DNA of 64,000 bases from Alphaproteobacteria bacterium. Lineage in GTDB: Bacteria > Pseudomonadota > Alphaproteobacteria > UBA8317. The translations under genes and the position numbers were made by a program. Of this stretch, positions 647-23,894 are shown one piece after another. The stretch's first letter is position 1, and each line of letters begins with the position of its first letter. The notes beneath the pieces are model-generated. The model made no database searches, was not told where the DNA came from, and saw only the letters and a list, made by a program, of their open reading frames with translations. The stretch lies in the NCBI GenBank assembly GCA_038131935.1, contig JAYPQH010000032.1, forward strand, positions 179,302 to 243,301, written 5' to 3'.

Positions 647-708
647 GGGCGGTGTCTCCTTTTGGTGGTAAATGCCAGAAAAATACTGGGCGCGACAAAA
701 AACAGTAA

Positions 709-737: not shown

Positions 738-739
738 GT

Positions 740-752: not shown

Positions 753-814
753 ATTCAGCTTTTCGATGTTTTAACCAAAAAAACACGAAAAACATTCATA
801 GGGAGAACAGTATA

Positions 815-1987: not shown

Positions 1988-2014
1988 TTTCCTTAACTTT
2001 TTGTTTTTTACAAA

Positions 2015-2041
2015 ACCCCATCTCTTTTTGAGAGATGGGGT
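2015..2041 (+). terminator. Stem-loop after the SBP gene (terminator or mRNA stabiliser)
   Basis: ACCCCATCTCT-TTTTG-AGAGATGGGGT, 11-bp perfect stem. Confidence 0.65.
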
Positions 2042-2064
2042 CTCACTGCTTCACGAGGTTTGTG

Positions 2065-4022: not shown

Positions 4023-4800
4023 ATGAAGCTGAAAGGATGGAAAAAGACCGTAAATTTGTGTACGCGCTGGCTCGTGGGCTTGATATTTTAAAGGCCTTTA
4101 GCCCCGATGAAGCTGAATTGAGTAATCTTGAGCTTTCAGAAAAGACAGGGTTACCAAAACCCACAGTATCACGTTTCACCTACACACTCACTGAGCTTGG
4201 TTATCTTGTTACAGCACCAAGAACTGGAAAGTTCAGGTTGGGCCCTCTGGTTCTATCATTAGGCTACACAATGCTCGCCTCGGTCGACTTGAGAGAGCGC
4301 GCGAAGCCATTTATGGATGACATTGCGCGTCGTGATCATGTTACTGTTGCCTTGGGAACACGAGATAAACTTAGCGCTGTATATATCGAGGTTTCCAAAG
4401 GTAGCCAAATCATCACAATTAGCAGAAATGTTGGCTCTAGGCTTCCCATACATAATACCGCGATGGGAAAGCCCTTATTGCTGCATTACCTGCAACAGAG
4501 TATCAATATCTCTTGAAAGCCCTCGCAGAAAAATTTCCAGAAGATATAAGAGCAATAGAAAAATCTTTGGAAATGGCTCGCGAAGACATTGAAAAATACG
4601 GATTTTGCACATCCATTGGAGAATGGATTAAAGATGTGAATGCTGTAGCTTCACCACTATTTTCAGCAGACCGCAACGAGATTTACGCCATCAATGTAGG
4701 AGGACCTTCATTCATGATAAATCAAGAGCGACTATGCGAAGAATTGGGACCAAGATTGGTAGATGTTGTAAAAGCCCTCACGCCAAGCGCATTGACATAG
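4019..4800 (+). CDS. IclR-family transcriptional regulator (frameshift near 4470)
   Basis: N-terminal HTH (ALARGLDIL...TGLPKPTVSRFTYTL); GSRLPIHNTAMGK; C-terminal GEWIKDVNAVASP in ORF 4513-4800. Confidence 0.92.
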
Positions 4801-4846: not shown

Positions 4847-6448
4847 TTAACCCAAAACCAAGGCCATGCCATCTTTGCGCGGATCAGACCCAGCCACATA
4901 GCCGCCTCCAGGTAAGGTTTGGATAAGCTGAGCTCCACCGAATCCAAGCCCCTCTGACCATGGAATTATTTTGATATCATGACCTGCATCACGCAAAGAT
5001 TGAACGAGGCTTTGCGGGAATGCCTCCTCAACTTCTACCTGATTTCCCTCCATAAATCTCCATCGAGGCGCATCAATTGCTGTCTGAACATCCTGCCCAA
5101 GGATTTGTGTTCGCACCAACATTTGCAGATGTCCTTGTGCTTGCATAAAAGCACCCATCACACCTGTGGCCATTCTGAGTCCGTTTGCTCCTGTAATAAA
5201 CCCCGGAATAATCGTATGGAACGGCCTTTTCATGGGGGCAACTTCGTTTGGATGTCCTTTTTCCATGGTAAAATTCGCACCGCGATTTTGGAAATGTATC
5301 CCCGTTCCAGGAACAGATACACCCGATCCCATTCCCATATAATTTGATTGAATAAAAGACACCATCATACCATCTTCGTCAGCAGCACAGAGATACACAG
5401 TACCACCGCCACCAGGCTTACCAGCCCCAAACACTTGAGCACGATTTGGATCAATCAAAGCTGCGCGTTCTGCTCCATACGAAGGATCAAGAAGCCGCGC
5501 TGGGTCGAACGCCATGTAATCAGGGTCTGCTACATGTGCAAGCAAATCAGAGAATGCTAACTTCATGGCCTCTATTTGAAGATGCGTTCCGCGCCAATCT
5601 TCACCGTCCCATTTGTCAAACGAGGTATGCTTTAGAATGTTTAGCGCGATGAGCGCAGCAATACCCTGTCCATTGGGCGGTATTTCATAAAGTGTGGTCT
5701 CACCAAAATCCATCTGCAATAGATCAACCCAATCTGCCTGATGCGCCTCTAGATCCGCAGCCGTCATACTCCCACCGGTTTCTTTCGCAAACGCAATGAT
5801 TTTGGCAGCCAATTCACCTGTGTAGAAATCCTCTCCTTGCGTCTTTGCGATGGCCCTGAAGCTGTCTGCCATACCGCGGTTTATAAAACGCTGTCCCACA
5901 TTTGGTACATGTCCGTTGTCTGTGAACATTTCAATGAAACCTGGTTGATCACGGAGGATTTCATGATCACGAGACCATAGTTTTTGCACAACAGGTGTCA
6001 CAATGAACCCCCGCTCCGCTTGCGAAATAGCATCTTCAAACAATGACTCAAACGGTAGCTTTCCAAATTTTTGCCACAATGCTGACCATCCACGTACAAC
6101 ACCTGGTACTGTGACCGCGTCCCAACCTCGCTTTGGAATACCACCTTTGGCATCAAAAAACTCCCTTGTCCACGCGGCGGGTGCTCGGCCAGAGGAATTC
6201 AAACCATGGACCTTCTCACCATCATGTACAATCGCAAAAGCATCCGAACCAAGACCACAGCCCGTAGGCTCAACCAGTGTTAACATAGCGGCCGTGGCTA
6301 TGGCCGCGTCAGCTGCAGACCCACCCTTTTCAAGGATACGCAATCCTGCCTGCGTTGCGAGGTATTGTGACGTTGCCACCGCTGCACGCCCAAATACGGG
6401 CGTTCGCCTTGTCATGGTCACTGGGTAATAAGGGTAGTTTATACTCAT
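4847..6448 (-). CDS. Gamma-glutamyltransferase-family Ntn hydrolase (YwrD/HpxW-like subgroup)
   Basis: ATSQYLA, VEPTGCGLGSDAF, EIPPNGQG, nucleophile GG|TVYL, SFIQSNY, KRPFHTIIP, GVMGAFMQAQGH, SDPRKDG. Confidence 0.9.
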   Translation of the reverse strand: MSINYPYYPVTMTRRTPVFGRAAVATSQYLATQAGLRILEKGGSAADAAIATAAMLTLVEPTGCGLGSDAFAIVHDGEKVHGLNSSGRAPAAWTREFFDAKGGIPKRGWDAVTVPGVVRGWSALWQKFGKLPFESLFEDAISQAERGFIVTPVVQKLWSRDHEILRDQPGFIEMFTDNGHVPNVGQRFINRGMADSFRAIAKTQGEDFYTGELAAKIIAFAKETGGSMTAADLEAHQADWVDLLQMDFGETTLYEIPPNGQGIAALIALNILKHTSFDKWDGEDWRGTHLQIEAMKLAFSDLLAHVADPDYMAFDPARLLDPSYGAERAALIDPNRAQVFGAGKPGGGGTVYLCAADEDGMMVSFIQSNYMGMGSGVSVPGTGIHFQNRGANFTMEKGHPNEVAPMKRPFHTIIPGFITGANGLRMATGVMGAFMQAQGHLQMLVRTQILGQDVQTAIDAPRWRFMEGNQVEVEEAFPQSLVQSLRDAGHDIKIIPWSEGLGFGGAQLIQTLPGGGYVAGSDPRKDGMALVLG

Positions 6449-7157
6449 GTTCCGTGGCTCTCTCTTGTTGTTCGAATTTCAATATGCTTCACCATATTGG
6501 GTATTTCTACCAATCGGTCCACATAAATTCCTGGTAAATGAATATGGTCAGGATCAAGACTTCCAGCAGGAACAATTTTTTCGACCTCAGCAATACATAC
6601 ACGACCACATGACGCAACATCTGGGTTAAAATTCCTTGATGTCTTTCGAAAAATAAGGTTCCCCGCGGTATCTGCAATTGATGCCCGAATAACAGAAACA
6701 TCAACAGTTATCGCCTCTTCCAAAATATATTCACGGCCATCAAAAACTCTTGTTTCCTTACCTTCAGCGACCTTGGTACCTACCCCTGTGGGGGTATAAA
6801 ATGCGGGAATTCCTGCACCGCCAGCACGCATTTTTTCAGCTAATGTTCCTTGTGGGGTAAAATCACAAGCAATCTCGCCCGCAAAATACTGCCGTACGAA
6901 CTCAGGATGATTACCGGGATAAGAGGCAATTGCTTTTTGATATGGCCTGCTTCAAGAATTAACCCTAAAGCTTTTCCAACAGCACCGGCATTGTTCGCCA
7001 CAACCGTAATATCTTTGGTGCCCTTCTCATGTATCGCAACGAGCAGATATTCTGGTGTGCCAACCAGACCAAATCCACCAACAGCCATACTCATTCCATC
7101 AAAAACAACATCCTCTATCGCTGATGCCGGACTTTCATAAATTTTTGCCAAAACCAT
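6445..7157 (-). CDS. 3-oxoacid CoA-transferase subunit A (frameshift near 6935)
   Basis: DGMSMAVGGFGLVGTP, NNAG; after restoring one base in the A-run: SYPGN...TPQGTLAEKMRAGGAGIPAFYTPTGVGT...HLPGIYVDR. Confidence 0.9.
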
Positions 7158-7199: not shown

Positions 7200-8003
7200 T
7201 TAACTTCCAACCCGCAGAGGATTTGTCAAACCACGCAAGCAGGCAATAAGACTTAACGAAGTAATCTTGCCAGTCCCTGGGTTTTCTTCTGTAGGTATAT
7301 TTTCAATACTCATTTGCAACTTGGCAGAATCTGAATCAACAACGATATGGTGGGTGTTGCGCGTCAGAGCAGGATCAGCCCAAATCTCTAGCTTTGTGAG
7401 ATCCGGCCCAATACCAGCCAATCCTAATGCTGCAGCCACATTCACGTTCGCTGGAAACGCCGCGGCTCCTTCTCGTGCGGTCCCTTTGAAAACGCACGTC
7501 GCCTCCTCCAGCATATCAACATCTATCCCTATTTCACGAAGGTAAGGGGCTTTGCGTAGAGACATTGGTGGCTTACGGGTAATCATCGTTACCTCATAAA
7601 TCTTTCCTTCTGCCGCCGCACGAACAGCATCAAAACCAAGCAACGCGCCGGTTGCCAGAATAATTTGCCCCGCTGATTCATGAGCCATGGCAACTATTTC
7701 AGGGTGTGCAAGAATACCAGCTCCACTCACAGTCACCAATTTCTTGCCATTCTCTAGGGTAGGAATTGCGATGGAGGGGAATGCAGCAGTGGGTGCACAA
7801 TCTACCACAACATCCGCATGATCAGCTATCTGGTTGTTATCAACGCATGGAACATCGAGACCATGCTTTAACAAAAACTCTTGTGCTTTCTCCTTCTGAC
7901 CTGAGCTCACAGCAACAAGTTCAAAGTCCTTGAGATGACCCTCGACAAAAGAAGACACAACTTTACGACCAATTGTACCAATACCTGCAATAGCGATTTT
8001 CAT
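7200..8003 (-). CDS. L-aspartate dehydrogenase (NadX-like) homolog
   Basis: GIGTIG Rossmann motif, GALLGFD, TRKPP, FPANVNVAA, ADP...NTHHI, ENPGTG. Confidence 0.85.
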   Translation of the reverse strand: MKIAIAGIGTIGRKVVSSFVEGHLKDFELVAVSSGQKEKAQEFLLKHGLDVPCVDNNQIADHADVVVDCAPTAAFPSIAIPTLENGKKLVTVSGAGILAHPEIVAMAHESAGQIILATGALLGFDAVRAAAEGKIYEVTMITRKPPMSLRKAPYLREIGIDVDMLEEATCVFKGTAREGAAAFPANVNVAAALGLAGIGPDLTKLEIWADPALTRNTHHIVVDSDSAKLQMSIENIPTEENPGTGKITSLSLIACLRGLTNPLRVGS

Positions 8004-8117: not shown

Positions 8118-8194
8118 CGCTTCTTGCAGGCTTGACAACCAATTGCTTAAGTCTTTCGACTAATATAACGCGAAATCGAAGTTTGGGGAATCAA

Positions 8195-9174
8195 ATGATG
8201 AAGAAACGAAATATTTTAGGTCTTGCTGCAGCTTTGTCTATGGGTGTGGCTGGTATATCCTACGCTGGGGGCCATAGTGCGGACATTCCATGTTCCACAG
8301 CGAAGTTAATCGTGCCTTGGGGTGCAGGTGGCGGAACGGATGTAATTTTCCGTCAAATTGTCGATGTTGCGAATAATCAAGGGATGAAACCGCAACTTCA
8401 GGTGGTTAATGTTGGAGGGCAAGGTGGTAACAAGGGTGCCAAGCAAGCCGTCGCAGCAAAACCTGATGGTTGCACCTTGTTCGCGATGCACCAAAGCGCC
8501 ATCACAAGTTACCTAACAGGACGTGTGAATTTCACTTGGGATGGGTTTGAACCTATTGCATTGATGACAAATACTCCATCAATCTTTGGGGCTGCAGGAA
8601 ATACATCATACAGCAATCTCAATGAGTTGATTGCAGAGATCAAGAAAAACCCAGGAACAGTAACTGCTGGTGCAACCTTGGGCTCTACGTCGCAAGTTGT
8701 TTTTCTTCTTACAGAGGACGCTACAGGCGGAAAATTCAAGTATGTGTCGTACGACGGAACCAAACAACGTATGACTGCTCTTCTGGCAGGCAACATTCAA
8801 GTTGGGGAAATCAATCTTGCAGCTGCAAAGAAATATATTGAAACAGGTAAACTCAAAGCGTTGGGCGTCATGTCAAACAAGCGTTTATCTGGGCTAGACG
8901 ATATCCCAACGGCTAAGGAGCAAGGGCTTGATGTTGTTTTTGGTGTGGAACGCGGTATCGTTGCGCCCAAGGGAACATCTGAGGCAATCGTTAAGCATTA
9001 TGCTGCAGCATTTCAAAAAGCCGCTTCTGACGAAAAGTTAATTGCAAGCATGCTCTCAAAGGGACATTCCTCGAATATGTAGGACCCTCAGAATATACTG
9101 CAAAGTTGGATGAAACCACCAAAAAGTGGACCACCATTTTCGATGGCATGGGTTTGCTAAAGGTGAAAAACTAA
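8195..9174 (+). CDS. tctC: Tripartite tricarboxylate transporter substrate-binding protein (TctC/Bug family; frameshift near 9060)
   Basis: Signal peptide (SYA|GGH); IVPWGAGGGTD, NVGGQGG, AKPDGCTL, IPTAKEQG, APKGT; corrected C-terminus ends at TAA 9172-9174. Confidence 0.9.
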
Positions 9175-9227
9175 ACAAGACTATAAAAAATTACCTTGGA
9201 ACAGAGGTGACATAAATTTTATGATAG

Positions 9228-9255
9228 ATCAGGGGCTTTTTAGCCCCTGATTTTT
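9228..9255 (+). terminator. Intrinsic terminator-like hairpin after tctC
   Basis: ATCAGGGGCT-TTTT-AGCCCCTGAT followed by a T-run. Confidence 0.7.
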
Positions 9256-9292
9256 CAGTTCTCTTTTTAACTTGACGTGGGATGCGTGATCC

Positions 9293-9796
9293 ATGAATCG
9301 TGATTTTTGGACAAGTTTGTTTTTGATATTTTTATCATTCGTACTGTATCGGGAAAGTACGTTCATTGAAGATGTTGATTATGGGAGTATGAAAGCTGAT
9401 GTCTGGCCAACCTTCTTGGTCATGCTGCTGGTTGTTTTATCAATATCTATGCTTGTGAAATCCCTAATGGAATACCGACAGGCAACGCAAAGCTCCACTC
9501 AAGACAATGAGAATGCTGAACAAACAGATTCCGTCACTGGTTGGACTTGGTTGATCAACCCAATGATAGTTTTTGTTCTATTCTTTCTATTCCTCATCAC
9601 CTTAGATTACCTTGGCATGCTCATCGGAGGTATCTTTTTTACGTTCATTACGATGACATTATTGGGGCAAATATCATGGCGGACTGTACCTATCTATTTT
9701 GTAATTTCAGTGATTAGCATCTCAGGGATGTGGGCAATTTTCACCTTTGGCTTACGCGTTATGTTGCCAGAGGGCGTACTTTTCACTGTTTGGTGA
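9293..9796 (+). CDS. tctB: Tripartite tricarboxylate transporter small membrane subunit
   Basis: Four hydrophobic segments, WP motif, C-terminal LRVMLPEG; lies between tctC and tctA. Confidence 0.85.
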   Translation: MNRDFWTSLFLIFLSFVLYRESTFIEDVDYGSMKADVWPTFLVMLLVVLSISMLVKSLMEYRQATQSSTQDNENAEQTDSVTGWTWLINPMIVFVLFFLFLITLDYLGMLIGGIFFTFITMTLLGQISWRTVPIYFVISVISISGMWAIFTFGLRVMLPEGVLFTVW

Positions 9797-9802
9797 GGAA
9801 TA

Positions 9803-11452
9803 ATGATGACTGATGCAATTATCTTGGCTGCACAAAGTATTTTTCTTGATCCCGTCACGTTAGGGCTGATTGCTTTAGGGACTTTTAGCGGACTGATAGC
9901 AGGATCGATTCCCGGTTTTACGATCGCAATGGGTGTTATCCTCGTACTTCCATTTACCTTTGGGCTAAGCCCAATCCAAGGCGTTGCCACCATGATTGGC
10001 GTTTTCGTAGGAGGGCTTTCCGGAGGTTTGTTGTCCGGCATGCTGATTGGAATTCCTGGCACACCTTCTTCAGTTGCCACGACGTTTGATGGTTTTCCAA
10101 TGGTCCGTTCAGGACGAGCAGGTTTTGCTCTTGCCTTGGGCCTATGGTCATCTTTTTTCGGAGGAATCATCTCTGCTATTTTGTTGGTGACCCTAGCCCC
10201 TCAGCTTGCTTTTCTTGGTTTGGAATTTGGGCCTTGGGACTATTTTATGCTCATCGTCTTCGCCCTCACTATTGCTGTAAGTTTATCAAGTCAAAATATG
10301 CTCAAAGGCCTCACAGCAGGAATCTTGGGATTGATCGCCGCAACAGTTGGAGAAGATGAAATCAATGGTGTTGCACGGTTTTCTTTTGACACCGAGGCAC
10401 TCAGGCAAGGATTTGCTTTTTTACCGGTGCTGATTGGCCTGTTTGCCTTCTCTCAATTGCTGTCTGATGTAGAGGATAGAACCAAGGCAAAATCATCCAT
10501 GATGAATGCTGAAGGGGAATCTGTACGTATCGAGCATCTCCGCGCTATTCGAGAAATATTTTCTCGTTGGATTAATCTTGTTAGGTCTAGCCTGATAGGC
10601 GTGTTTGTTGGAATTCTACCAGCGGCTGGAGGTTCTATTTCCAATATTTTGGCCTATGATCAGGCACAGAAAGCATCAAAAGTCCCTGAACAATTTGGAA
10701 AAGGCGTATCAGACGGCGTTATAGCACCTGAAGCCGCCAACAATGCCACCGCGGGTGGGGCACTTATGATGATGATGGCCCTAGGTATCCCAGGTGATAT
10801 CGTGACCGCGGTCATGATCGGCGCTTTGATGATACATGACATTGTCCCGGGTCCAACCTTTATTCAAGACAAGCCTGTGTTGGCTTATGGTGTTTTTATA
10901 GCTTTTTTCTTTGCTAACTTTGTTATGGTCTTCATGATGTCTGGGGCATTGCGTGTATTTTTGAAGGTAGCGAGGGTTCGGCTAAATATTCTTGTTGCTG
11001 TCATATTGGCTTATTGTGCCTTTGGTGTTTTTGCCTTGCACAATATTGGCTTTGACCTCTGGGTGCTCTTTGGGTTCGGCATCGTTGGTTATATCATGAA
11101 AAAGCTTGGTTTCCCTCTAGCCCCGATGATTTTGGGTGTTGTGTTGGGGAAACTCGCTGAGATCAATCTCTCAAGAGCCTTGGCGATTTCTGATGATATC
11201 ATGCTATTTGTTTCTCGCCCTTGGTCATTATTTTTCTTCCTGCTTGCCATCGTGTCGGTTATTTTTCCATTTTTCCAGCAAGCACGTGACGAAAGCCTTT
11301 TGAAACGATTTTTTGTACCCTTGAGCTTGGTTGTTCTTGCTTTACCATTATTCGTAATGGACTCTTATACACGTATGATTGTTGGTATCTTGATGATTGT
11401 TTTTGCCGCATGGCAGCTTCGCAAGAAATCTTTCGTCCCTCAAAATGGTTAA
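9803..11452 (+). CDS. tctA: Tripartite tricarboxylate transporter large permease
   Basis: GSIPG, IGIPGTPSSVATTFDGFPM, GVIAPEAANNA, LGIPGD, PLAPMILG. Confidence 0.93.
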   Translation: MMTDAIILAAQSIFLDPVTLGLIALGTFSGLIAGSIPGFTIAMGVILVLPFTFGLSPIQGVATMIGVFVGGLSGGLLSGMLIGIPGTPSSVATTFDGFPMVRSGRAGFALALGLWSSFFGGIISAILLVTLAPQLAFLGLEFGPWDYFMLIVFALTIAVSLSSQNMLKGLTAGILGLIAATVGEDEINGVARFSFDTEALRQGFAFLPVLIGLFAFSQLLSDVEDRTKAKSSMMNAEGESVRIEHLRAIREIFSRWINLVRSSLIGVFVGILPAAGGSISNILAYDQAQKASKVPEQFGKGVSDGVIAPEAANNATAGGALMMMMALGIPGDIVTAVMIGALMIHDIVPGPTFIQDKPVLAYGVFIAFFFANFVMVFMMSGALRVFLKVARVRLNILVAVILAYCAFGVFALHNIGFDLWVLFGFGIVGYIMKKLGFPLAPMILGVVLGKLAEINLSRALAISDDIMLFVSRPWSLFFFLLAIVSVIFPFFQQARDESLLKRFFVPLSLVVLALPLFVMDSYTRMIVGILMIVFAAWQLRKKSFVPQNG

Positions 11453-11532
11453 GGATCAAACACCCTAAGCAAATGTCATGACGCCCTTTTTGCAAAAAAT
11501 GGTTCCTTAAATGAACGATAATGAGACATATT

Positions 11533-13985
11533 ATGAACAAAAACCTTGACTTTTTGGGTGCTGGTGACCCTGGAGCGCTGGATTTTCTGCTTCAACATCT
11601 CAATGGCAATACATCTCAAAAAGATTGGGATATATGGTTCGCACAATTCAGCTGGCTATATGCGGATATCAATCCACTCAAAAACCTAAACCGTTGCCAG
11701 AATTTGTTTCATCTGATCCCGATGCGAAGGGACATATAGAGCATTTTTGTGGTACAATTGGATGGGAAGTAGGCCATATTTTAAATGAAGAGAAACGCCA
11801 TTGGCTGCTTGACGCTGCCAAAACACAAAAGCAGTCATCTGTATTTACTGTAGCCGAAGCATTTGAACTTTTGTGTAAAGCAGAAGCATTTGAGGCGATT
11901 ACGAAAAAAAGGTTACCAACCATCAAGACCTTCTCTATGGAAGGAGGCGAAGGATTTCTCGTTGCCGTTGAATCGGTGATTAAGCATGCCCAAGAAATCA
12001 ATATTGTTCTTGGGGGTATGCATCGCGGCAGAATGACCCAAAATGCATTATTATTTGGGGCCAGCCCAGAAGATATGATTGGCCAAATTCAAGGCAAACC
12101 AGACCTGCCTTTTGACCTTGGAGCCTCCTCAGATGTGCCTTATCATTTGGGGGTTGCTGGCAAGCGCTCCGATGACAAGGTTATTTGGCTTTCCCCCCAC
12201 CCTTCGCATTTGTCCGTTGTTGCACCTGTTGCTATGGGTTATGCGCGCGGCCAAGAAGAACAATGCTTAAGCATTATGTTGCATACAGATGCTGCGTTTG
12301 CAGGCCAAGGAGTTAACATGGAGTTGCTCCAATTATCAGGCCTAGACGGTTATCACGTTGGTGGAAGTATCCATTTGATTTTAAATAATCAAATTGGCTT
12401 TACAACATTAGAAGAACAAGCTCGAACAGCAAGAAATAGCAGTGACATAGCTCGTATGCTCGACATACCTATATTACATGTTCATGGGGATGATATTGTA
12501 AGTCTCATAAAAGCCGGTTTTATTGCGGTAGAATACAGACGACAATTTGCCACGGATGTTGTCATTGAAGTACTGTGCACAAGGCGGCGCGGTCATAACG
12601 AGATTGATGACCCAAGCTATACAGCGCCTATTATGCAACAGCAAATTGATGCACGCCCTCCCATCACAACCATCACCCAGCGAAAATATCAACTGACACA
12701 ACCCGACATTTCTGATTTTAACCAGCGGATTAATGATGCATTCAATTTGGATAATCTTTCAACAGATAACCAAATTCCAGATGCCCCTGGCCTGGTAAAT
12801 GATGTTGAAGCGGTATTATGCAAACCAGTTAAAACTGGCATCATGTTAGACAAACTCATTCAAATTGGGGAACAACTAACGACTTGGCCTCATGAATTCA
12901 CCATTCACCCACGGGTGGCTCAATTGCTCACCAAACGAGCTGAAGCGTTGCGTTCACATGGCAAAATAGATTGGGGGTTTGCCGAAACATTGGCTTTGGG
13001 TGGTTTGCTTGATGAAGGCTATTCCGTAAGGCTTTCCGGCCAAGATACTGTACGTGGTGCCTTTTCCCAGCGTCATTTGCATATCTATGATCAGAATGTC
13101 GGAACCTCTTTCGAACCTTTGTCCCAGCTTGGTGACGCAGAAATATTTAATTCACCTTTGATTGAGAATGCTGTGCTTGGGTTTGAATATGGTCTTAGTG
13201 TGTCGGCCCCTAACAAATTGGTCATTTGGGAGGCACAATTCGGTGATTTTCTGAATGTTTGCCAAGCCATGTTTGATCAATTTGTAACAGGCGGTGAAGA
13301 TCGTTGGTTGCAACAATCTCGGCTTGTTATGCTTCTTCCTTATGGTTTTGACGGAGGTGGCCCAGACCATTCAACCGGGCATATTGAAAGGGTGTTATCA
13401 AGAGCAGCGCGAGGTAATGTTCGTGTTGCCAATCCAACCACACCAGCCAATTATTTTCACCTTCTTCGTCGTCAAATGCATGACCATCTGGCCAAACCAT
13501 TGGTTGTTTTTTCCCCTAAGCTTCTCCTAAGACATCCTCTGTGCCTCTCAGATGTTGATCACTTCACCAAAGGTCATTTTGAAACTTTCAAGACTTGGAA
13601 TATTGAAAATGCACAACAGATTGCATTTTGTCATGGTAAAATGGCCGTTCGCATGCTTGAGGAGTGCAACAAGCGTGATTGTCATGATTGGGGTATCGTT
13701 TCACTCGAACAACTTTATCCCTTGGACAGAAATAATTTATTGAAATTAAAAGAGCTTCTTTCAACTAAGAAATTATTCTTTGTTGAAGAAGAACCCGCCA
13801 ACCTAGGGGCTTTTACATATCTCGATAGAAAGTTGGAATCTATATTCCAACAAACCTTTCATCGTATTGGTCGGCCCGAAGCTGCATCACCCGCTGTTGG
13901 GTGGAAAAGTTGGCATGACAAAGAAGAAAACTTACTTTGGACACAAATATTTGGGAACAATAATCATGACAAAATTGCCAGATGA
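11533..13985 (+). CDS. Divergent 2-oxoglutarate dehydrogenase E1 (SucA/Kgd)-like ThDP enzyme (frameshift near 11680)
   Basis: MHRGR, DVPYHLG, PSHL, HTDAAFAGQGV, NNQIGFTT, GHNEIDDP, RLSGQD, VLGFEYG, WEAQFGDF, GPDHS; about 817 aa. Confidence 0.85.
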
Positions 13986-14619
13986 GATCATTGAACGGCT
14001 GAAGAAGCTTGCCACCCCAACCATTGCGAACGCAATTGATGAAATTGGCCAAGGCGGTATCATGAAAGGTATTCACGCTGTAGGCGCAGGTTTTAAATGT
14101 GCGGGACGCGCCGTAACCGTTCGTCAAGTGACAGGGCCATTAGGAAGTTTCAAAGTTGAGGACTTTCGGGTTGGTCATATGATCGATGCAGCAGGTCCTG
14201 GTGATATTATTGTGGTCGCCAATGGTGGTGCGGAGGTGTCCACATTTGGGGGCATGGCAGCCTATGCTGCAAAACATCGCGGTATTGAGGGACTGGTTGT
14301 CGATGGGGGTGTAAGAGACCGTGAAGAAATTATCGAGTTTGGTTTTGATGTTTTTTCTGTCCATGTCACCCCTACTCCTGGAAAAACGCGTTTGAAAGTT
14401 GAGCAAATCAATGAAACGATTGTAGCTTGTGGGGTAACGGTTAATCCAGGTGACGCAATACTCGCTGATGGTAGTGGTGTTGCGGTTCTACCTCGAGATC
14501 ATGCTGAGCACATCATCACCTTAGCGGAAGGGTATGCACGCGATGATGAAAAGGCTTTGGAAGAATTGGCAAATGGCCTAAGCTTTACTGAGGCCTTAAA
14601 GAAATTTGCCAAAATTTAA
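13966..14619 (+). CDS. RraA / 4-hydroxy-4-methyl-2-oxoglutarate aldolase family protein
   Basis: AGRAVTV, PGDIIVV, FGGM, VDGGVRD, VNPGDAILADGSGV; ATG 13966 overlaps the end of the E1 gene. Confidence 0.88.
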   Translation: MTKLPDEIIERLKKLATPTIANAIDEIGQGGIMKGIHAVGAGFKCAGRAVTVRQVTGPLGSFKVEDFRVGHMIDAAGPGDIIVVANGGAEVSTFGGMAAYAAKHRGIEGLVVDGGVRDREEIIEFGFDVFSVHVTPTPGKTRLKVEQINETIVACGVTVNPGDAILADGSGVAVLPRDHAEHIITLAEGYARDDEKALEELANGLSFTEALKKFAKI

Positions 14620-14723
14620 GGTGCTTCATGAGTTCAAGGTTCACATGTCATAGACTTTGGTCTATGTGATGGAGCTGTTTATTGGGATAACCCCCAATGA
14701 ATCATCTAAAAAGGGAGAGTATA

Positions 14724-15767
14724 ATGATCAGAACAGTTACCAAAGCCCTCGTTATTGTTGGGGTGGCAAGTTCACTCAGCATGGGCACGGCTTTGGCTGG
14801 CGGCCATGGCGCCACAGTCGAAGGACCAAAAGTTTTTTGGAAACTTTCAACATGGGGAAACCCACGTGCATTTACCAAAGGTATTGAACACCTATCCGAG
14901 CAGTTGGCCAAAAAAACAGGCGGCAACTTTACCTTAAAGATTTTTTACGGTGGACAGCTGTCAAAGAACAAGGAAAACCTTGACGGTTTGAAGGCAAATG
15001 CCTTCGAAATGGCAACATTTTGTAACTTTTATCACCCCGGCAAAAACCCGGCTTTGATGGTTATGACCATGCCATTTTTACCTGTGAAAGATTTTGATTC
15101 AGCTGCACGTGTGCGCCGTGGACTTTATGAGCATCCCATCGTCAAAGAAGAAATGGCGAAATGGAATGCGATGTATTACGAGTCAAGTCATCTTCCACAA
15201 TATGAATTTGTTGGTAAAGGTGATGCCCCTATGACACTTGAGGGTTTCAAGGGTATGCGCGTTCGTGCCGGTGGTGGCGTTGGTGTCGCCATGGAAGTTT
15301 TGGGCGCGACACGCCAGTCCATGCCAGCACCTGAAGTCTATACCGCAATGCAGCGTGGTACCGTTGACGCCGCATCATTCCCCTTCTCTTATGCTCATGG
15401 TGCATACAAAACTTTTGAAATTGGCGACTGGTTCACGTCTAATCTGTCTCCTGGCACCTCAGATTGCCCCATCGTTGTAAACAAAACAGCTTTTGATAAT
15501 CTTCCAAAACAGTATCAAGACCTCATGATGGGTATGCGTGATGAAGTGATGGAAGTTTATCGTAACGCATACAAAGCAGCGGATGAAAAATATCTGCCAA
15601 TGTTCCGTGCTAAATTAAAAGAAATCACCTACTCAGATGCAGAGCTTGCTCGTTTCCAGGAACTGGGTGGTCGTCCTGTTTGGGACAAGTGGGTTGCAGA
15701 CAACAAGGATAAGTTTGATGCTCAAGCGATCCTTGACCTAACACTCAAACTTGCTAAGGGCGAATAA
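14724..15767 (+). CDS. dctP: TRAP transporter solute-binding protein (DctP family)
   Basis: Signal peptide (ALA|GGH); TGGNFTLKIFYGGQL, KGMRVR, EVYTAMQRGTVDA; GGGAG RBS. Confidence 0.92.
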   Translation: MIRTVTKALVIVGVASSLSMGTALAGGHGATVEGPKVFWKLSTWGNPRAFTKGIEHLSEQLAKKTGGNFTLKIFYGGQLSKNKENLDGLKANAFEMATFCNFYHPGKNPALMVMTMPFLPVKDFDSAARVRRGLYEHPIVKEEMAKWNAMYYESSHLPQYEFVGKGDAPMTLEGFKGMRVRAGGGVGVAMEVLGATRQSMPAPEVYTAMQRGTVDAASFPFSYAHGAYKTFEIGDWFTSNLSPGTSDCPIVVNKTAFDNLPKQYQDLMMGMRDEVMEVYRNAYKAADEKYLPMFRAKLKEITYSDAELARFQELGGRPVWDKWVADNKDKFDAQAILDLTLKLAKGE

Positions 15768-15794
15768 ACGCTCCCTTTGGTTGTTAAAATAAGA

Positions 15795-15823
15795 TTGGGG
15801 TCTGATGGTCTATTGGACCCCAA
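15795..15823 (+). terminator. Stem-loop after dctP
   Basis: TTGGGGTC...GACCCCAA inverted repeat. Confidence 0.55.
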
Positions 15824-15902
15824 AAAATTTGCCAAAAAATTTGATTGAATAGCTGGCAAAAAAATCAAATGTTACAGGGCTGTTTCCAAGAGGAGATCGA
15901 AT

Positions 15903-16529
15903 ATGGCCGGCACATCAGAGCATACGGAAGTGAACACTCCGGTTGGTTTTTTCCCTACCATTCTAGCGAAACTAGAAGATATGCTTAATATAGTTGCAGC
16001 CGTGACAATCTTTGCGGTCATGCTACTCACCACCGCCGGTATAGTTTCACGTATTCTTGGCGCCCCCATCCCAGCTTATTTGGAGATCTCCGAACTAGCG
16101 ATCGCCATTTTTGCTTTTCTTGGTGTAGCCTATGCACAAAGACTAGGTACGCATATTCGGCTCGATATGATCGTGAAAAATGCACCAGGTTCACTCCGCT
16201 GGTTCATTGAATTGCTTGGAAGTGTTGTCAGCTTGTTGCTGGTCTTGGTCTTGATACGTTATTCTTGGGACTTTTTCTTAAACGCCTATCATATAGGTGA
16301 CAGTACATATGACTATGAGATCCCGACTTGGCCAGCGAAGCTTTTGGTACCCTTCGCATTCAGCGTTTGGGCCTTGCGCATCTTGGTAGAAATTTTTGGT
16401 TATTTTGAGCTCATCATTTCTCCAAACAATCGTCCTAGAAACGTTCCCCTCACATTGTCACCTGAGGAAGAAGCCCGACTAGAGATTGAACAATCTTCCA
16501 CATCAACCGATGGTTCTCGTAACCAATAG
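15903..16529 (+). CDS. dctQ: TRAP small permease (DctQ)
   Basis: Four TM segments, AYAQRLGTHIRLD, PTWPAK. Confidence 0.9.
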   Translation: MAGTSEHTEVNTPVGFFPTILAKLEDMLNIVAAVTIFAVMLLTTAGIVSRILGAPIPAYLEISELAIAIFAFLGVAYAQRLGTHIRLDMIVKNAPGSLRWFIELLGSVVSLLLVLVLIRYSWDFFLNAYHIGDSTYDYEIPTWPAKLLVPFAFSVWALRILVEIFGYFELIISPNNRPRNVPLTLSPEEEARLEIEQSSTSTDGSRNQ

Positions 16530-16562
16530 GCGTCACACCAACCACCCATTAGAAGGATCACC

Positions 16563-17975
16563 ATGTTGGATATCAGTGCATTGATCGCAGGCCAACCAGA
16601 GGCCATTTTTGGTATTGGATATGCAGACACCGCGACGGTGGGGATGTACTGTATGATCTTACTCCTCATCCTCGTCGCAATGGGCGTGCGCGTTGTATTC
16701 GCAGCAGGAATTACAGGTCTCGTTGGCTTGGTAGAATTGATTGGCTGGAGTGGAGCTGCAGCGACCGTTGGCTCGATTCCCTACTCCAAATCGGTATCGT
16801 TTGTATTGGGGCTCTTGCCCATGTTCATTCTCATTGGATACCTCGCGTTTCACGCTGGTATGACGCGGCAACTTTTCCATGCCTCTAAAGTATGGTTGGG
16901 TTGGGTGCCAGGAGGTATGGCCGTCGCAACTGTCTTTGCTGCTGCTGGTTTTGCAGCTGTTTCTGGTGCATCAGTCGCCACGGCAGCCGTTTTTGCGCGC
17001 GTGGCCATCCCAGAGATGTTGGAAGCAGGATACAAAAAGACTTTAGCAGCGGGTGTTGTCGCAGCAGGCGGCACTCTTGCAACCCTTATTCCCCCATCTG
17101 CTATTTTGGTCATCTATGCCATCATTGTTGAGGAGTCCGTGGGGGCCCTCCTGATCGCAGGTTTTTTACCCGGTGTCTTCTCCGCCATTATTTATGGACT
17201 AATTATTATCATCTGGGCCAAATTAAACCCAGATGCAGGTCCTGCTATAACAGGCTTTACCTGGGGAGATCGAATACGTGCTTTACCGGGCTTACTTCCC
17301 ATTATGGCGGTTGCTATCATCATTATCACGGCTGTTTATGATGGTTGGGCAACACCAACAGAAGCAGGCGCCTTAGGTGCATTTATTGTACTTATCACAG
17401 CCTTTTTGAATGGCATGAGGTGGCCTGCATTAAAAGCAGCTCTGATGGAAACATCTAAGCTCGTTGTTATGATTTTTTGTTTGATTTGGGGCGTTCTGAT
17501 ATTTGGTCGTTTCTTAGGATTTTCAGCTGTGCCAGAGGCCTTTGCCAATTGGATTCTATCGTTAGACCATGATCCTTACGTCATCTTATTTGCGATACTT
17601 ATGGGATATGTGATCTTGGGAATGTTCATGGATGCCATTGGCCTACTTTTGCTCACACTGCCTGTTGTTTACCCTGCTGTTATGGCCCTCAATGGCGGTG
17701 AGTATGTTACCGCGGAAGACAGTGCATTTGGCATGACAGGCGCCCAAGCAAGTATCTGGTTCGGGATAATTGTTGTTAAAATGGCGGAAGTTTGTTTGAT
17801 CACCCCCCCCATTGGACTCAATTGTTTTGTGGTGAACGGTGTGAGGCCAGACATACCTCTTACCGATGTATTTAAAGGCATTGCTTTGTTTTTCGTGGCT
17901 GATGTGTTAACAATTATTGGGCTGATATTCTTTCCAGCTATTATCACATACTTACCGGATCAAATGTTTAACTAG
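16563..17975 (+). CDS. dctM: TRAP large permease (DctM)
   Basis: AAVSGASVATA, GGTLATLIPPS, TPTEAGA, LITPPIGLN. Confidence 0.93.
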   Translation: MLDISALIAGQPEAIFGIGYADTATVGMYCMILLLILVAMGVRVVFAAGITGLVGLVELIGWSGAAATVGSIPYSKSVSFVLGLLPMFILIGYLAFHAGMTRQLFHASKVWLGWVPGGMAVATVFAAAGFAAVSGASVATAAVFARVAIPEMLEAGYKKTLAAGVVAAGGTLATLIPPSAILVIYAIIVEESVGALLIAGFLPGVFSAIIYGLIIIIWAKLNPDAGPAITGFTWGDRIRALPGLLPIMAVAIIIITAVYDGWATPTEAGALGAFIVLITAFLNGMRWPALKAALMETSKLVVMIFCLIWGVLIFGRFLGFSAVPEAFANWILSLDHDPYVILFAILMGYVILGMFMDAIGLLLLTLPVVYPAVMALNGGEYVTAEDSAFGMTGAQASIWFGIIVVKMAEVCLITPPIGLNCFVVNGVRPDIPLTDVFKGIALFFVADVLTIIGLIFFPAIITYLPDQMFN

Positions 17976-17987: not shown

Positions 17988-19223
17988 TTGCAGCCTCTTA
18001 CAAATTACGCACCGCGTGATATCACGCGGGCGAGCATGGCCATTGTAGCTTTTTGCTTTTTCATGCACATGCTTGCACGCGGTTTGTCTGAGACAATAGC
18101 GGTTTTTCTACTTCCTGTAACCCAAGACATGGGCTGGTCTAGGACCGAATTCAGCTCCATTTATGCAATATTTATGGCAACCCATGGTATTACAGCGCCC
18201 TTTATTGGTGCTATGTTTGATCGTTTCGGGCCCAAATGGATTTATATTCCAGCCATCATTTGCCTCGGACTTGGGTATCAAATTGCCTCACATATGCAAC
18301 ATCTTTGGCATGCACAACTTGGGTTAGGGATTTTAATAGGTTTGGCCGTGTCGGGTATGGGTATGGCCGTGGCAACTGGAGTTATAAGCCGATGGTTTGA
18401 TAAAAACCTCACCATTGCAACATCAATTACCTATGCTGGCATGTCCGTTGGCATGATTGCTGTGGCGCCATTATCACAAGAATTAATTGAAACTTTTGGA
18501 TGGCGTGACGCATATTTTTACCTGAGTCTACCACCGCTGATCCTAGCGCCCTTGCTTATTTTGCTGCCTTGGAAACGGATTACTTTTGGTTATAAAAATC
18601 AAAAGCCTATGACTTCTAAAAGATTTCTTATCCCTGCTTATGTTTTGAAACAACCTACTTTTTGGGGTTTGTTTATTAGCTTTTATGCGACTGCTGTTGC
18701 CATCTGGAACAGTGTTCTGCAAATCGCCGCTTACCTCGTTGAAATTGGCTTTTCACCAATCTTAGCAGCTACTGGTTTTGGGACCATGGGTGCCATGAGT
18801 ATGGTCGGGATGCTGTTGGTTGGCTACCTTGCAGACCGATATCAGCGACATTGGGTGATCACCATTAGTTTTTTGATGACCGTTTTAGGCATTATTTGCA
18901 TTTGGCTTCTGCAATTCACACCAACGATAAGTATGATGTTTATCTCTGTCATGATGTTTGGATCTACCATGGGGTCAAGAGGGCCTGTTATATCCGCATT
19001 GGTGGCAAAATTGTATCCTCAAATGGTTGGGGCAGTTTACGGTATGATTACCATCGCATTTGGACTTGGTGCCGCCACGGGCGGTATGCTTTCAGGCTTT
19101 CTACATGACGTAAGTGGTGGTTATGATGTGGTGTTTGCTGCTTCAATAATCGCATGCCTGATAGGTCTTGCACCTTATTGGATTCTATATACCTTAAAAT
19201 ATGGACGTTGGCCTCACAGTTGA
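17988..19223 (+). CDS. MFS transporter
   Basis: About 12 TM segments; motif A-like GAMFDRFGPK and GYLADRY. Confidence 0.85.
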   Translation: MQPLTNYAPRDITRASMAIVAFCFFMHMLARGLSETIAVFLLPVTQDMGWSRTEFSSIYAIFMATHGITAPFIGAMFDRFGPKWIYIPAIICLGLGYQIASHMQHLWHAQLGLGILIGLAVSGMGMAVATGVISRWFDKNLTIATSITYAGMSVGMIAVAPLSQELIETFGWRDAYFYLSLPPLILAPLLILLPWKRITFGYKNQKPMTSKRFLIPAYVLKQPTFWGLFISFYATAVAIWNSVLQIAAYLVEIGFSPILAATGFGTMGAMSMVGMLLVGYLADRYQRHWVITISFLMTVLGIICIWLLQFTPTISMMFISVMMFGSTMGSRGPVISALVAKLYPQMVGAVYGMITIAFGLGAATGGMLSGFLHDVSGGYDVVFAASIIACLIGLAPYWILYTLKYGRWPHS

Positions 19224-19234
19224 GGGAGAAAGAT

Positions 19235-20386
19235 ATGGATAACTTTCAAGATATTAAAGATGCCATTCATAAACTGATGGAAGGCTTCGGGGAAGAATAT
19301 TGGATGGCATGCGATCGCGACAGTCGATTTCCTGAAGAATTTCGTGAAGCCATCGTAAAATCGGGTTGGTTGGGTATTGCAGTACCTGAAGCGTATGGTG
19401 GATCAGGCCTTGGCCTTCGTGAAGGTATTGTTATGATGGAAGCTGTGGCAAATTCACCAGGTGCTATGTCTGCAGCCTCAAGCATCCATATGGATATCTT
19501 TGGCCCCAAAAGTATTGTTCATCATGGGTCAGAAACGCAAAAACAAGAATGGTTACCTCAAATTATTTCAGGTACATTACGAACATGCTTTGGTGTGACA
19601 GAGCCTGATGCTGGTCTTGATACAGGATCCATTACAACCAGTGCCCATCGTGATGGTGATCACTATATTATACGGGGAAGAAAAATTTGGACCTCAACAG
19701 CCCAACAAGCTGACCGTGTTATTCTCCTTGCACGTACAACGCCCAAGGAAGACTGCAAAAAATCTACAGATGGCCTGAGTCTATTTTTTGCGCCCCTTGA
19801 CCGGCGTTACGTTACGATTCAAGAAATTCCCAAAATGGGGCGCCATGCGGTGAATTCTAACATGGTGTTCTATGATGAATTACCTGTCCCAGCGTCCTGT
19901 CTTATTGGTGAGGAAGGACAAGGTTTTCGTATCCTGATTGATAGCTTGAACCCAGAAAGATGCCTTGTGGCTGCTGAAGCTATTGGGATTGGACGACAGG
20001 CTCTAAAAAGGGCTTGCATGTATGCCCGTGAGCGAGAAGTCTTTGGTCGTCCTATTGGCACAAACCAATCTATTCAACATCCCCTTGCAGAGAGTTACGC
20101 TGAACTTGAAGCGGCATGGCTGATGACGCAGAAGGCAGCAGACTTATATGATCAAGGGTTATCATGCGGGATAGAGGCCAACAGTGCTAAATATCTAGCT
20201 GGCGAAGCAAGCTTTAAAGCCTGTGAACGCGCCATTTTAACCCATGGCGGTATGGGGTATGCGAAAGAATACCATGTCGAGCGATTGATGAGGGAGGTCT
20301 GGATAAACCGTATTGCTCCCGTCTCTCAACAAATGGTTCTCAACTTCATCGCAGAACGTGCTTTGGGACTACCTCGTAGTTATTAA
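19235..20386 (+). CDS. Acyl-CoA dehydrogenase family protein
   Basis: PEAYGGSG, FGVTEPDAGLD, GRKIWTS, LNPER, REVFGRPIG, HGGMGYAKEYHVER, LGLPRSY. Confidence 0.92.
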   Translation: MDNFQDIKDAIHKLMEGFGEEYWMACDRDSRFPEEFREAIVKSGWLGIAVPEAYGGSGLGLREGIVMMEAVANSPGAMSAASSIHMDIFGPKSIVHHGSETQKQEWLPQIISGTLRTCFGVTEPDAGLDTGSITTSAHRDGDHYIIRGRKIWTSTAQQADRVILLARTTPKEDCKKSTDGLSLFFAPLDRRYVTIQEIPKMGRHAVNSNMVFYDELPVPASCLIGEEGQGFRILIDSLNPERCLVAAEAIGIGRQALKRACMYAREREVFGRPIGTNQSIQHPLAESYAELEAAWLMTQKAADLYDQGLSCGIEANSAKYLAGEASFKACERAILTHGGMGYAKEYHVERLMREVWINRIAPVSQQMVLNFIAERALGLPRSY

Positions 20387-20403: not shown

Positions 20404-21396
20404 TTAGGGTCTAACAATAATTGTTCCGATCGGACGGCCCTCTTCTTGCCTAAGATGAGCACTAGCTATTTGCTCCAAGGTAAATTCGCTATCGATGCGT
20501 CGAGGAAAAAGACCTTGTTCTAAAGCCTTTGCAACGAGGCTTGCACAAGCGAGTTTCTCTTCTTCAGTGATTTCAAATATGGCAACACCATGAAGAGAAA
20601 TATTACGGTACATGTAAGGCGCCCAAGGCAGTTGAGGCTCGGGATTGCTCGCTGATCCATAACTCGCAATTTTCCCGTTCTGGGCTATAAATGACCATGC
20701 ATCTGACAAATGCGCACCCAAATCTACGTCCACCATCAAACGTGCCCCGGCTCCATTCGTGAGATCATGAACCGTTGTTTTGATCTGTTGAACATCGGGG
20801 GAAATGACCCAATTTGCGCCGGCCTTTTTTGCATCCTCTGCCCGCCGATCATCGCGGGCTGTAGCCAGTACCTGCGCACCCAACATTTTGGCAAGGACGA
20901 TTGCTGCATTACCAACAGCACCTGCACCACCTGTCACGATAACTAGGTCATCTGGTGAAATTTCTCCCAAACGTACCGCACGCGCAGCCGTCATGGCCGG
21001 GACCCCTAAACTTGCACCATGAGCAAAATCATCTTTATCAGCAAGGGGCATAGCCCTGGTTAAGGGGACAACGGTATACTCACTTGCAGCACCATCCCAA
21101 CGCTTGTGGGCACATTCCCAAGCCCAAACTCTTTTACCTATATGATGGGATGGAACATCAATACCAACATCCACAATCACACCGGCAGCATCAAAACCTG
21201 GGATCACCCTTGGATAGTTAAGAGCACCACGAAAGCCAGAGCGCCTTTTACAGTCTGTCGGATTCACCCCATGCGCCTCTACTTTGATGAGTACTTCGTT
21301 ATGAGCTGGTTGAGGTATTTCCAAGCTACCGACTTGCAAGACATCCTTCGCAGCACCGGTTTGATCATAAAATGCAGCTCTCATTGTATTTTGCAT
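20404..21396 (-). CDS. NADPH:quinone reductase-like MDR oxidoreductase
   Basis: GVNPTD, PRVIPGFDAAG, TGGAGAVG nucleotide-binding motif. Confidence 0.88.
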   Translation of the reverse strand: MQNTMRAAFYDQTGAAKDVLQVGSLEIPQPAHNEVLIKVEAHGVNPTDCKRRSGFRGALNYPRVIPGFDAAGVIVDVGIDVPSHHIGKRVWAWECAHKRWDGAASEYTVVPLTRAMPLADKDDFAHGASLGVPAMTAARAVRLGEISPDDLVIVTGGAGAVGNAAIVLAKMLGAQVLATARDDRRAEDAKKAGANWVISPDVQQIKTTVHDLTNGAGARLMVDVDLGAHLSDAWSFIAQNGKIASYGSASNPEPQLPWAPYMYRNISLHGVAIFEITEEEKLACASLVAKALEQGLFPRRIDSEFTLEQIASAHLRQEEGRPIGTIIVRP

Positions 21397-23791: not shown

Positions 23792-23894
23792 AGGTATCAT
23801 GCTCCAAGTTACGGTTGTATTGATTATGAGTTTGCTTAATACTACTTACGTCGCAGAATTTTCTCATGATTTCCAGCCCTAAGTAAGGTAAAAT

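Follow-up and report, generated by a model that had tools for sequence, protein, structure and literature searches.

A second SucA-like E1 with a conserved HTDAA motif beside an RraA-like gene in an alphaproteobacterial genome

To our knowledge, very few specificities have been established for E1 enzymes of the 2-oxoglutarate dehydrogenase (OGDH) fold, namely that for 2-oxoglutarate itself, that of DHTKD1 for 2-oxoadipate, and the side reactions of Kgd. Kgd, or 2-hydroxy-3-oxoadipate synthase (HOAS), has the fold of the OGDH E1 (E1o) and can act as decarboxylase or carboligase with no separate E2, and in the pathway of DHTKD1 GCDH serves as the acyl-CoA dehydrogenase and SUGCT as the family-III CoA-transferase. 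Here, we describe a SucA-like E1, predicted to depend on thiamine diphosphate (ThDP), whose gene overlaps that of an RraA-like protein in a stretch of 64,000 nucleotides from an alphaproteobacterium of the UBA8317 lineage (GCA_038131935.1, contig JAYPQH010000032.1, positions 179,302 to 243,301; the whole stretch is hereafter the window), and we place it in a clade in which the canonical HGDAA motif reads HTDAA.

Two sources describe how substrate size is read in this fold. According to PMC7835950, His350 and Lys276 of OGDH contact the distal carboxylate of a 2-oxoglutarate analogue and Tyr349 clashes with a longer adipoyl analogue, DHTKD1 having Ser263 at that place. PMC7340257 ascribes the preference of DHTKD1 for 2-oxoadipate to four pocket residues specific to that enzyme (Tyr190, Tyr370, Ser263 and Asp707), and presents DHTKD1 as an E1 that has no E2 of its own and borrows one.

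The second E1 and its clade

The window E1 is a second, non-canonical SucA-like copy. Its genome (G000) also holds a canonical sucA followed by sucB and lpd on contig C14, the elsewhere-located sucAB that the original prediction had wanted confirmed, and the product of that sucA scores 1136-1140.5 bits on TIGR00239 (cut-off 770) and about 1383.5 bits on NF006914 (cut-off 764). P0002, a database protein of 817 aa that is 99% identical to the window E1, falls under both cut-offs (618.9 and 755.2 bits, respectively) and matches the SucA models only from about position 150 on. The window paralog is ~37% identical to the SucA of its own genome, and a family search scores the two at 1174 and 929 bits. 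The same duality is seen elsewhere: the genomes behind loci L004-L006 each have a family copy (~1300 bits) and a canonical copy (~900-930 bits), and each of the eight carriers whose whole genome was searched contains a SucA match of canonical level besides. Genome-wide, E2 (PF00198) matches occur on C14 and C2 only, the latter in a pyruvate dehydrogenase cluster, and lipoamide dehydrogenase genes on C2, C14 and C10; on C32, the contig of the window, these searches turned up neither an E2 nor an E3 gene, in agreement with the earlier observation that no sucB or lpd lies nearby.

The paralog and its relatives form a group of their own; a place inside canonical SucA had been named in advance as counting against the prediction. 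Our alignment comprised 206 sequences of at least 700 aa (113 database proteins and 93 open reading frames, ORFs, of fetched loci; 7 and 6 shorter ones, respectively, were dropped), and a FastTree LG+gamma tree of 826 columns gathers the 123 non-HGD (H-[TS]-[DE]-A) sequences in one clade (support 0.896, stem 0.285), with P0002 inside it as sister to P0100 and P0102. The remaining 83 sequences, canonical SucA and Kgd from many phyla, alphaproteobacterial ones included, fall outside. Five motifs co-vary between the HTDAA clade and canonical SucA (Table 1). All the motifs that had been picked out in the translation (ENAVLGFEYG, WEAQFGDF, GPDH, PSHL, HTDAA, DVPYH, KTF and LPYGFDGGGPDH) are present there, and the view that the threonine codon of HTDAA is no read error is upheld by the conservation of the motif changes across the clade. 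The LPY form had been counted among the family differences as well; it proved to be a His-to-Tyr change private to the window, all 27 aligned relatives and four of four other assemblies having LPH.

All three core domains (E1_dh, Transket_pyr and OxoGdeHyase_C) are present in the paralog, and the main loss of length is N-terminal, where about 100 residues are missing. A median of 44 residues precedes the LDPL motif in the family, against ~119 in canonical sequences, the latter being an upper bound since stop-to-stop ORFs were used. Relative to the SucA of its own genome, P0002 lacks ~83 residues before and 28 after LDPL, plus four small segments. At E<=0.01, PF16078 (2-oxogl_dehyd_N) is found in the canonical copy but in neither P0002 nor P0006; the extreme N-terminus of the paralog still shows a degenerate LGAGDPGAL..AL motif. 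Six SucA-like proteins of 890-930 aa (P0126, P0127, P0128, P0129, P0131 and P0134) have HTDAA and a DVPYH-like motif, yet KRF and E-G-Q-G, and with this mixture of motifs they look like possible intermediate forms linking canonical SucA to the short clade.

The clade appears to be undescribed so far. A literature search returned no paper on it or on the pairing of such an E1 with an RraA-like protein, NCBIfam holds no dedicated model for it, and the ESM Atlas gave generic OGDH clusters only. It is also rare. None of 60 same-class relatives (one of them, G040, an unpublished genome) has a second, family-level match, each showing at most one match of at most 955 bits. Carriers number 4 of 400 sampled alphaproteobacterial genomes (class of Oceanibacterium; E<=1e-300, centre genome counted), and in the order of Albimonas the only clade member among 401 genomes is in the centre genome itself. 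A protein library of 1.84 billion representatives at 50% identity gave 4421 matches at E<=1e-30, of which only 7 reach at least 1000 bits, one of them partial; the best 150 of the 4421 divide into 18 with H-[TS], 124 with HG and 8 that could not be assigned. A metagenome search with the back-translated HTDAAFAGQGVN pattern yielded 7 loci only, and a contig scan with the family alignment (generic SucA peptides) retrieved mostly canonical SucA, 3 of 80 kept loci being of the family. Transposases flank the E1 in three of the nine loci scanned with Pfam (L103, L104 and L107, from ocean metagenomes), the genes being of IS6/IS240 or IS66 type (L103 3692-6619 and 10817-12046; L104 149-1009; L107 10769-13420). 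Together with the patchy distribution, this suggests horizontal spread of the E1 homologue.

The frame break and the quality of the assembly

As written in the window, the E1 gene is not a single open frame. The original prediction gave it about 817 aa from 11533, a length that exists only with a run of six A, as in P0002 and in four of four other assemblies, and it missed the frame shift that the window itself contains. The span 11533..13985 measures 2453 nt, which is no multiple of 3. The frame from ATG 11533 reads MNKNLDFLGAGDPGAL...ADINPL and terminates near 11738, and the long E1 frame is open only from ~11568 to 13985, with a longest ORF of 786 aa from TTG 11625; the junction of the two is the AAAAA run (Table 1). 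P0002 reads ..ADINPLKKPKPLPEF.. (..PLKKPKPL..) and is, judged by the sequence, the same gene with six A, the two window frames matching its residues 1-49 and 52-817 with 8 substitutions overall. Contigs from four public runs (4 studies) were compared over 11300-14700, and the single site-covering contig of each run has an extra A behind 11679. Each of these contigs also has C at 13341, giving the His604 that all 27 aligned relatives share. Among 136 family-invariant columns the window deviates at His604 only, and P0002, itself part of that alignment, has the expected residue at all 136. Apart from His604Tyr, the second frame differs from P0002 by 7 conservative changes, with no further stops. 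A promoter and terminator scan gave signals no better than those of shuffled sequence.

Comparable breaks occur throughout this 2.48-Mb assembly (67 contigs, 89.9% complete). The gene rpoC is in four pieces (C17:49892-53908) and ileS in two (C18:78075-80620), both cysS-like loci of the genome are broken, and a further split region lies at C10:84490-85330. Besides the split genes of Table 1, a Glu_synthase-domain gene and a nitronate monooxygenase gene (NMO) are frame-split in the window, where regions with split genes include 31187-32814 and 50565-51763. The breaks in cysS, NMO and the IclR gene sit outside any run of at least five bases, which excludes homopolymer errors as the sole cause of every split. 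Because a widespread free-living bacterium cannot have lost rpoC, ileS, cysS and gltX, indel errors seem to be frequent in the assembly, and genes of this genome that look like pseudogenes are not to be trusted as such; the stretch is present, in whole or in part, in 19 runs of 8 studies covering seawater, estuary, salt-lake and freshwater samples. As a separate observation, a giant gene with cadherin and RTX calcium-binding repeats occupies 38513-49740 (+), where it is divided among at least six successive ORFs that differ in frame; probably these belong to a single giant repeat protein, secreted or on the cell surface, whose gene the same kind of assembly error has broken up.

Since rpoC, ileS, cysS and gltX of the same genome are also broken, the break in the E1 gene is most likely an assembly indel artefact. 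The competing view, that this strain carries a recent pseudogene with a genuine one-base deletion and a genuine His604Tyr change, draws on the fact that both changes are private to the window against four of four other assemblies, on the invariance of His604 among the 27 relatives and on the long branch of P0002; a decaying copy had been named in advance as grounds for discarding the prediction, and superficially the frameshift and His604Tyr give that appearance. Like breaks in the essential rpoC, ileS, cysS and gltX would be non-viable if real, however, and the E1 otherwise shows only conservative differences from P0002 and no extra stops, so that we consider a pseudogene improbable. Tyr604 itself may be an assembly error or a genuine strain allele. 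Programmed -1 ribosomal frameshifting at the A-run, which would yield the full protein by a shift at 11680-11684, was rejected and has in our view next to no chance of being correct: C-AAA-AAC is not an X-XXY-YYZ slippery heptamer, the gene has a single frame in all four other assemblies and frame breaks are common across this one.

Table 1. Features of the window and motifs that distinguish the HTDAA family from canonical SucA
Feature	Position	Strand	Basis or remark
IclR regulator, split	4001-4516 / 4456-4800		
CoA_trans subunit, split	6840-7157 / 6445-6951		
TctC, TctB, TctA tripartite tricarboxylate transporter	8132..11452	+	Pfam
E1 paralog codons 1-49 (MNKNLDFLGAGDPGAL...ADINPL), first frame	11533..11679	+	Identical to P0002 residues 1-49
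Five-A run at frame change (six A, Lys50-Lys51, in other assemblies)	11680..11684	+	Sequence and contig comparison
E1 paralog codons 52-817 and stop, second frame; E1_dh, Transket_pyr, OxoGdeHyase_C	11685..13985	+	766 residues, 8 differences from P0002
K132-T133-F134, Lys and Phe retained, Arg replaced	11925..11933	+	Motif counts; coordinates computed from frame
D-V-P-Y-H 201-205, Tyr-His retained	12132..12146	+	Translation and motif counts
ACA, Thr252 of HTDAA (canonical HGDAA)	12285..12287	+	Sequence and motif counts
TAT, Tyr604; CAT (His) in 4/4 other assemblies	13341..13343	+	Contig comparison and alignment
RraA/HMG-CHA-aldolase-like gene, 217 aa, 20-nt overlap with E1 stop	13966..14619	+	PF03737
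DctP, DctQ, DctM TRAP transporter	14697..17975	+	
MFS transporter	17988-19223	+	
Acyl-CoA dehydrogenase	19154-20386	+	
Quinone-oxidoreductase/MDR	20404-21396	-	
CoA-transferase III	21433-22509	-	
Acyl-CoA dehydrogenase, N-terminally short ORF	22630-23664	-	
CoA-transferase III, full-length	23892-25115	+	508 bits, succinate--glutarate CoA-transferase model (cut-off 750)
cysS, split	62464-63063 / 62004-62531		
gltX, split	63350-63889 / 63054-63416		
ThDP/Mg motif			Family H-T-D-A-[AS] (120), H-S-[DE]-A-A (3); canonical H-G-D (83)
Region 1 motif			Family K-[TLIM]-F; canonical K-R-F
Tyr-His site			Family D-[VS]-[PSA]-Y-H; canonical D-V-K-Y-H
His604 motif			Family L-P-H-G-x-D-G-G-G-P-D-H; canonical L-P-H-G-Y-E-G-Q-G-P-E-H
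His164 motif			Family M-H-R-G-R; canonical A-H-R-G-R

Neighbourhood and proposed function

The E1 gene lies between a tripartite tricarboxylate transporter (TTT) and a TRAP transporter, as the original prediction had it, and the 20-bp overlap noted with the downstream gene holds if the latter starts at ATG 13966, the E1 stop being at 13985. The downstream product is an RraA-like protein (PF03737, 110 bits, cut-off 24.5) with the DGGVRD motif intact, as had been noted, and with R117-D118, which we take to be its catalytic Arg-Asp pair, invariant in four of four E1-linked copies. Its best PDB matches are 3k4i (uncharacterised, the best) and 3noj, and it stays under every NCBIfam equivalog cut-off. 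We compared 13 fetched loci (L004-L006 and L100-L109) with the window neighbours by tblastn, nine of them also being scanned with Pfam. An RraA-like gene follows the E1 directly, on the same strand and touching or overlapping it, in L005 (40% identity), L006 (68%) and L100 (65%), so that the pairing whose conservation had been proposed for checking recurs, beyond the window, in 3 of the 11 loci whose downstream flank is 1 kb or longer. Three of five other E1-bearing genomes searched have an orthologue with 55% identity or more, next to the E1 in G063 (68%) and G297 (65%) and on a separate contig in G061 (55%), and the best match in 60 E1-lacking relatives has 36% identity. The RraA-like partner is specific to one subclade and is neither universal nor obligate. 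A predicted complex of E1 (residues 60-817) with the RraA-like protein, with a score of 0.00 and a mark of 0.32, carries no weight either way.

Genes of CoA-ester metabolism are the most frequent company of the E1. CoA-transferase III genes occur near it in 5 of the 13 loci (L006, L100, L106, and two each in L101 and L102) and acyl-CoA dehydrogenase genes in 2 of the 13 (two in L100, and L106), with two of each in the window. For several of the CoA-transferases the nearest NCBIfam model is succinate--glutarate CoA-transferase (508 and 530 bits, cut-off 750). Transporter genes 53-65% identical to the DctPQM of the window lie beside the E1 in L101 and L102 (2 of 13), and GlcD-like FAD oxidases, at 261-275 bits against a cut-off of 568, in L004, L006 and L101 (3 of the 9 Pfam-scanned loci). 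The scanned ORFs of the window and of these nine loci include no aldehyde dehydrogenase, genes for meta-cleavage of protocatechuate or gallate were not observed in the vicinity, and searches of DctP and TctC against the PDB gave distant matches only and no ligand clue.

Several other features of the window may be recorded here. The CoA-ester module of the island is duplicated, a second acyl-CoA dehydrogenase and CoA-transferase (22630-25115) lying beside the first quinone-oxidoreductase/CoA-transferase pair. Upstream of the transporter-E1 cluster are an aspartate-dehydrogenase-family gene (7200-8003, -; 316 bits, over the NF009825 cut-off of 253) and a gamma-glutamyltranspeptidase gene (4847-6448, -), neither kept at other family loci. 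Further upstream, the N-terminal domain of a ThDP enzyme is encoded at 2-754 (-), in a gene cut by the window edge, and an NMT1-like binding protein with a DctM-type TRAP permease at 752-4022 (+), the ORF of the latter beginning at profile position 42 after an overlapping ORF.

Within the active site, the family keeps K132, H164, Y204-H205, H604, F134, F290 and all four active-site histidines, which we take to be equivalent to E. coli H260/H298/H729 and MsKGD H460/H540/H579/H1020, index arithmetic agreeing. Second-shell positions of the pocket change to smaller residues (Arg to Thr, Lys to Pro, Glu to Asp and Gln to Gly), with one change in the opposite direction, Gly to Thr in the ThDP motif (T-D-A-A...N-N for G-D-A-A). 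Since the anchoring residues are kept while their neighbours mostly shrink, we infer from sequence that the pocket anchors a distal carboxylate yet is roomier, and so would admit a larger or 4-substituted 2-oxo-dicarboxylate.

The reading that we prefer, and hold with middling confidence, is that of a probably intact 817-aa ThDP-dependent E1 of the rare HTDAA clade, its frame break an indel, which would act on a bulkier 2-oxo-dicarboxylate with a borrowed E2 and a CoA-linked fate for the product. The flanking TTT, TRAP or MFS transporters would import the substrate; the E1 would decarboxylate a bulkier 2-oxo-dicarboxylate, such as 2-oxoadipate or a 4-substituted 2-oxoglutarate (an HMG/CHA-type aldolase substrate); the acyl group would pass, in the fashion of DHTKD1, to the sole succinyltransferase E2 (E2o) of the cell and to E3; and the neighbouring family-III CoA-transferases and acyl-CoA dehydrogenases would process the resulting acyl-CoA. 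In the subclade of the window, the translationally coupled RraA-like protein, as a class II aldolase, would make or cleave a 4-hydroxy-2-oxo acid belonging to this pathway. We favour acyl transfer to a borrowed E2o over release of a free aldehyde because the neighbourhood is centred on CoA and contains no aldehyde dehydrogenases. Within this frame, 2-oxoadipate, giving glutaryl-CoA, is a tentative candidate for the substrate, a 4-hydroxy- or 4-methyl-2-oxoglutarate tied to the aldolase a somewhat doubtful one and plain 2-oxoglutarate an unlikely one. An undescribed two-step route, which we think quite improbable, would have the aldolase condense pyruvate either with glyoxylate, yielding 4-hydroxy-2-oxoglutarate, or with another pyruvate, yielding 4-hydroxy-4-methyl-2-oxoglutarate, the E1 with borrowed E2o and E3 convert the product by oxidative decarboxylation to malyl-CoA (or citramalyl-CoA), and the family-III CoA-transferases recycle the CoA; if true, this route and the GlcD-like oxidases of three loci would amount to a new form of glycolate/glyoxylate assimilation in marine bacteria.

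A number of points weigh against the preferred reading. The RraA-like gene is absent beside 8 of the 11 flanked loci, and two E1-bearing genomes, G241 and G377, have no RraA-like match at E<=1e-15. The CoA-transferases and acyl-CoA dehydrogenases all fall under NCBIfam equivalog cut-offs. The branch of P0002 is long (0.82, against a terminal 0.29 for the canonical SucA of the same genome), rpoB is intact, so that some long genes of the assembly are unbroken, and a Tyr at the invariant His604, if real, would probably cripple the copy of this strain. The shortening of the N-terminal region, which binds E2 and E3 in canonical E1o, could equally mean independence of E2, and what we propose for the substrate, for E2 and for the aldolase is in each case an inference. 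The DHTKD1 determinants are matched at no more than one of four positions, in a putative mapping that combines DHTKD1 motifs with index arithmetic, and the DVPYH of the family retains the Tyr of OGDH, a residue reported to be unfavourable to 2-oxoadipate.

Two other accounts of the function must be set beside this. The original prediction saw a new specificity exercised with an aldolase, which remains plausible and is partly supported, and cast the enzyme as an E2-independent 2-oxo-acid decarboxylase or carboligase (Kgd/HOAS-like) working with a class II aldolase, for example on glyoxylate/pyruvate-derived 4-hydroxy-2-oxo acids, a part that gained no specific support. The locus does lack an E2 or E3 gene, the N-terminus is short with PF16078 undetected, and in the window, L005, L006 and L100 the coupling with the RraA-like gene is tight; yet most family loci have no adjoining aldolase, the scanned ORFs offer no aldehyde dehydrogenase, and, because CoA-transferases and acyl-CoA dehydrogenases are the commonest neighbours, an acyl-CoA-forming, E2-dependent E1 fits at least equally well. 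Mycobacterial KGD is the top PDB match at 486 bits, but by a small margin over E. coli SucA (466) and DHTKD1 (451), and DHTKD1, as described in PMC7340257, is a precedent for a borrowed E2, which leaves the E2-independent enzyme a doubtful proposition. A redundant 2-oxoglutarate dehydrogenase isozyme of unchanged specificity, perhaps supplying succinyl-CoA to the family-III CoA-transferases of the island, would explain why CoA-transferase III is the most frequent neighbour, why some members exceed the NCBI SucA cut-off (P0006 at 772.5 against 764) and why K132, H164, Y204, H205, H604, F134 and F290, all reported as 2-oxoglutarate binders (PMC7835950), are conserved. This account we judge unlikely, for five near-active-site motifs changed jointly and were then fixed clade-wide, the clade stem is long, and a canonical-level SucA is also present in all 8 carriers searched whole.

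The clade is of interest for the enzyme family and for its annotation. Given the conserved and coordinated remodelling of the pocket, a canonical SucA that is always co-present and the accessory catabolic islands in which the genes lie, the HTDAA clade is a concrete candidate for a further E1 specificity. Public names for its members are inconsistent, being either '2-oxoglutarate dehydrogenase E1' or 'thiamine pyrophosphate-dependent enzyme', because the cut-off of the NCBI SucA model falls right at the border of the clade, with P0006 (Acuticoccus) just over it and P0002 under it; the model border thus splits one clade between two names.

Comparison with known enzymes

With canonical SucA (E. 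coli 2JGD and the C14 copy) the paralog shares the three core Pfam domains, NNQIGF, WEAQFGDF and, as a family and apart from the Tyr604 of the window copy, the catalytic histidines and the Lys and Tyr-His at the distal carboxylate site. It differs in being ~170 residues shorter, chiefly at the N-terminus, in having no adjoining sucB-lpd, in belonging to a separate clade and in reading KTF, DVPYH, HTDAA, HGxDGGG and MHRGR where SucA has KRF, DVKYH, HGDAA, HGYEGQG and AHRGR. MsKGD (2XT6/2XTA) is its best-scoring solved relative, OdhA scoring 457 bits and human OGDH 408. Kgd and OdhA have an N-terminal succinyltransferase domain together with HGDAA, DVKYH, KRF and EGQG, none of which the paralog has; on NF008907 (Kgd/OdhA) it reaches 710.3 bits against a cut-off of 878, over model positions 471-1239 only, and it has no PF00198 domain.

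The downstream gene has the PF03737 fold and the Arg-Asp pair in common with the P. putida HMG/CHA aldolase (3NOJ) and RraA-like proteins, and its product lies under the cut-offs for CHA aldolase (98.5 against 179 bits) and ligK/PcmE (86.1 against 304.5).

DHTKD1 (6SY1/6U3J) is, like the paralog, a second E1o-like enzyme without an E2 or E3 of its own, and it borrows both from the OGDH complex. The Asp of H-G-x-D-G presumably resembles Asp707 of DHTKD1, in a mapping drawn partly from DHTKD1 motifs. At the other determinants the family has Phe (KTF), Phe (NNQIGF) and Tyr (DVPYH), where PMC7340257 gives Tyr190, Tyr370 and Ser263 for DHTKD1. In view of the Tyr at the Ser263 position we rejected a DHTKD1-like pocket specialised for 2-oxoadipate and, as DHTKD1 at 451 bits is no closer than bacterial SucA or Kgd, the family is, by its sequence, not specifically DHTKD1-like.

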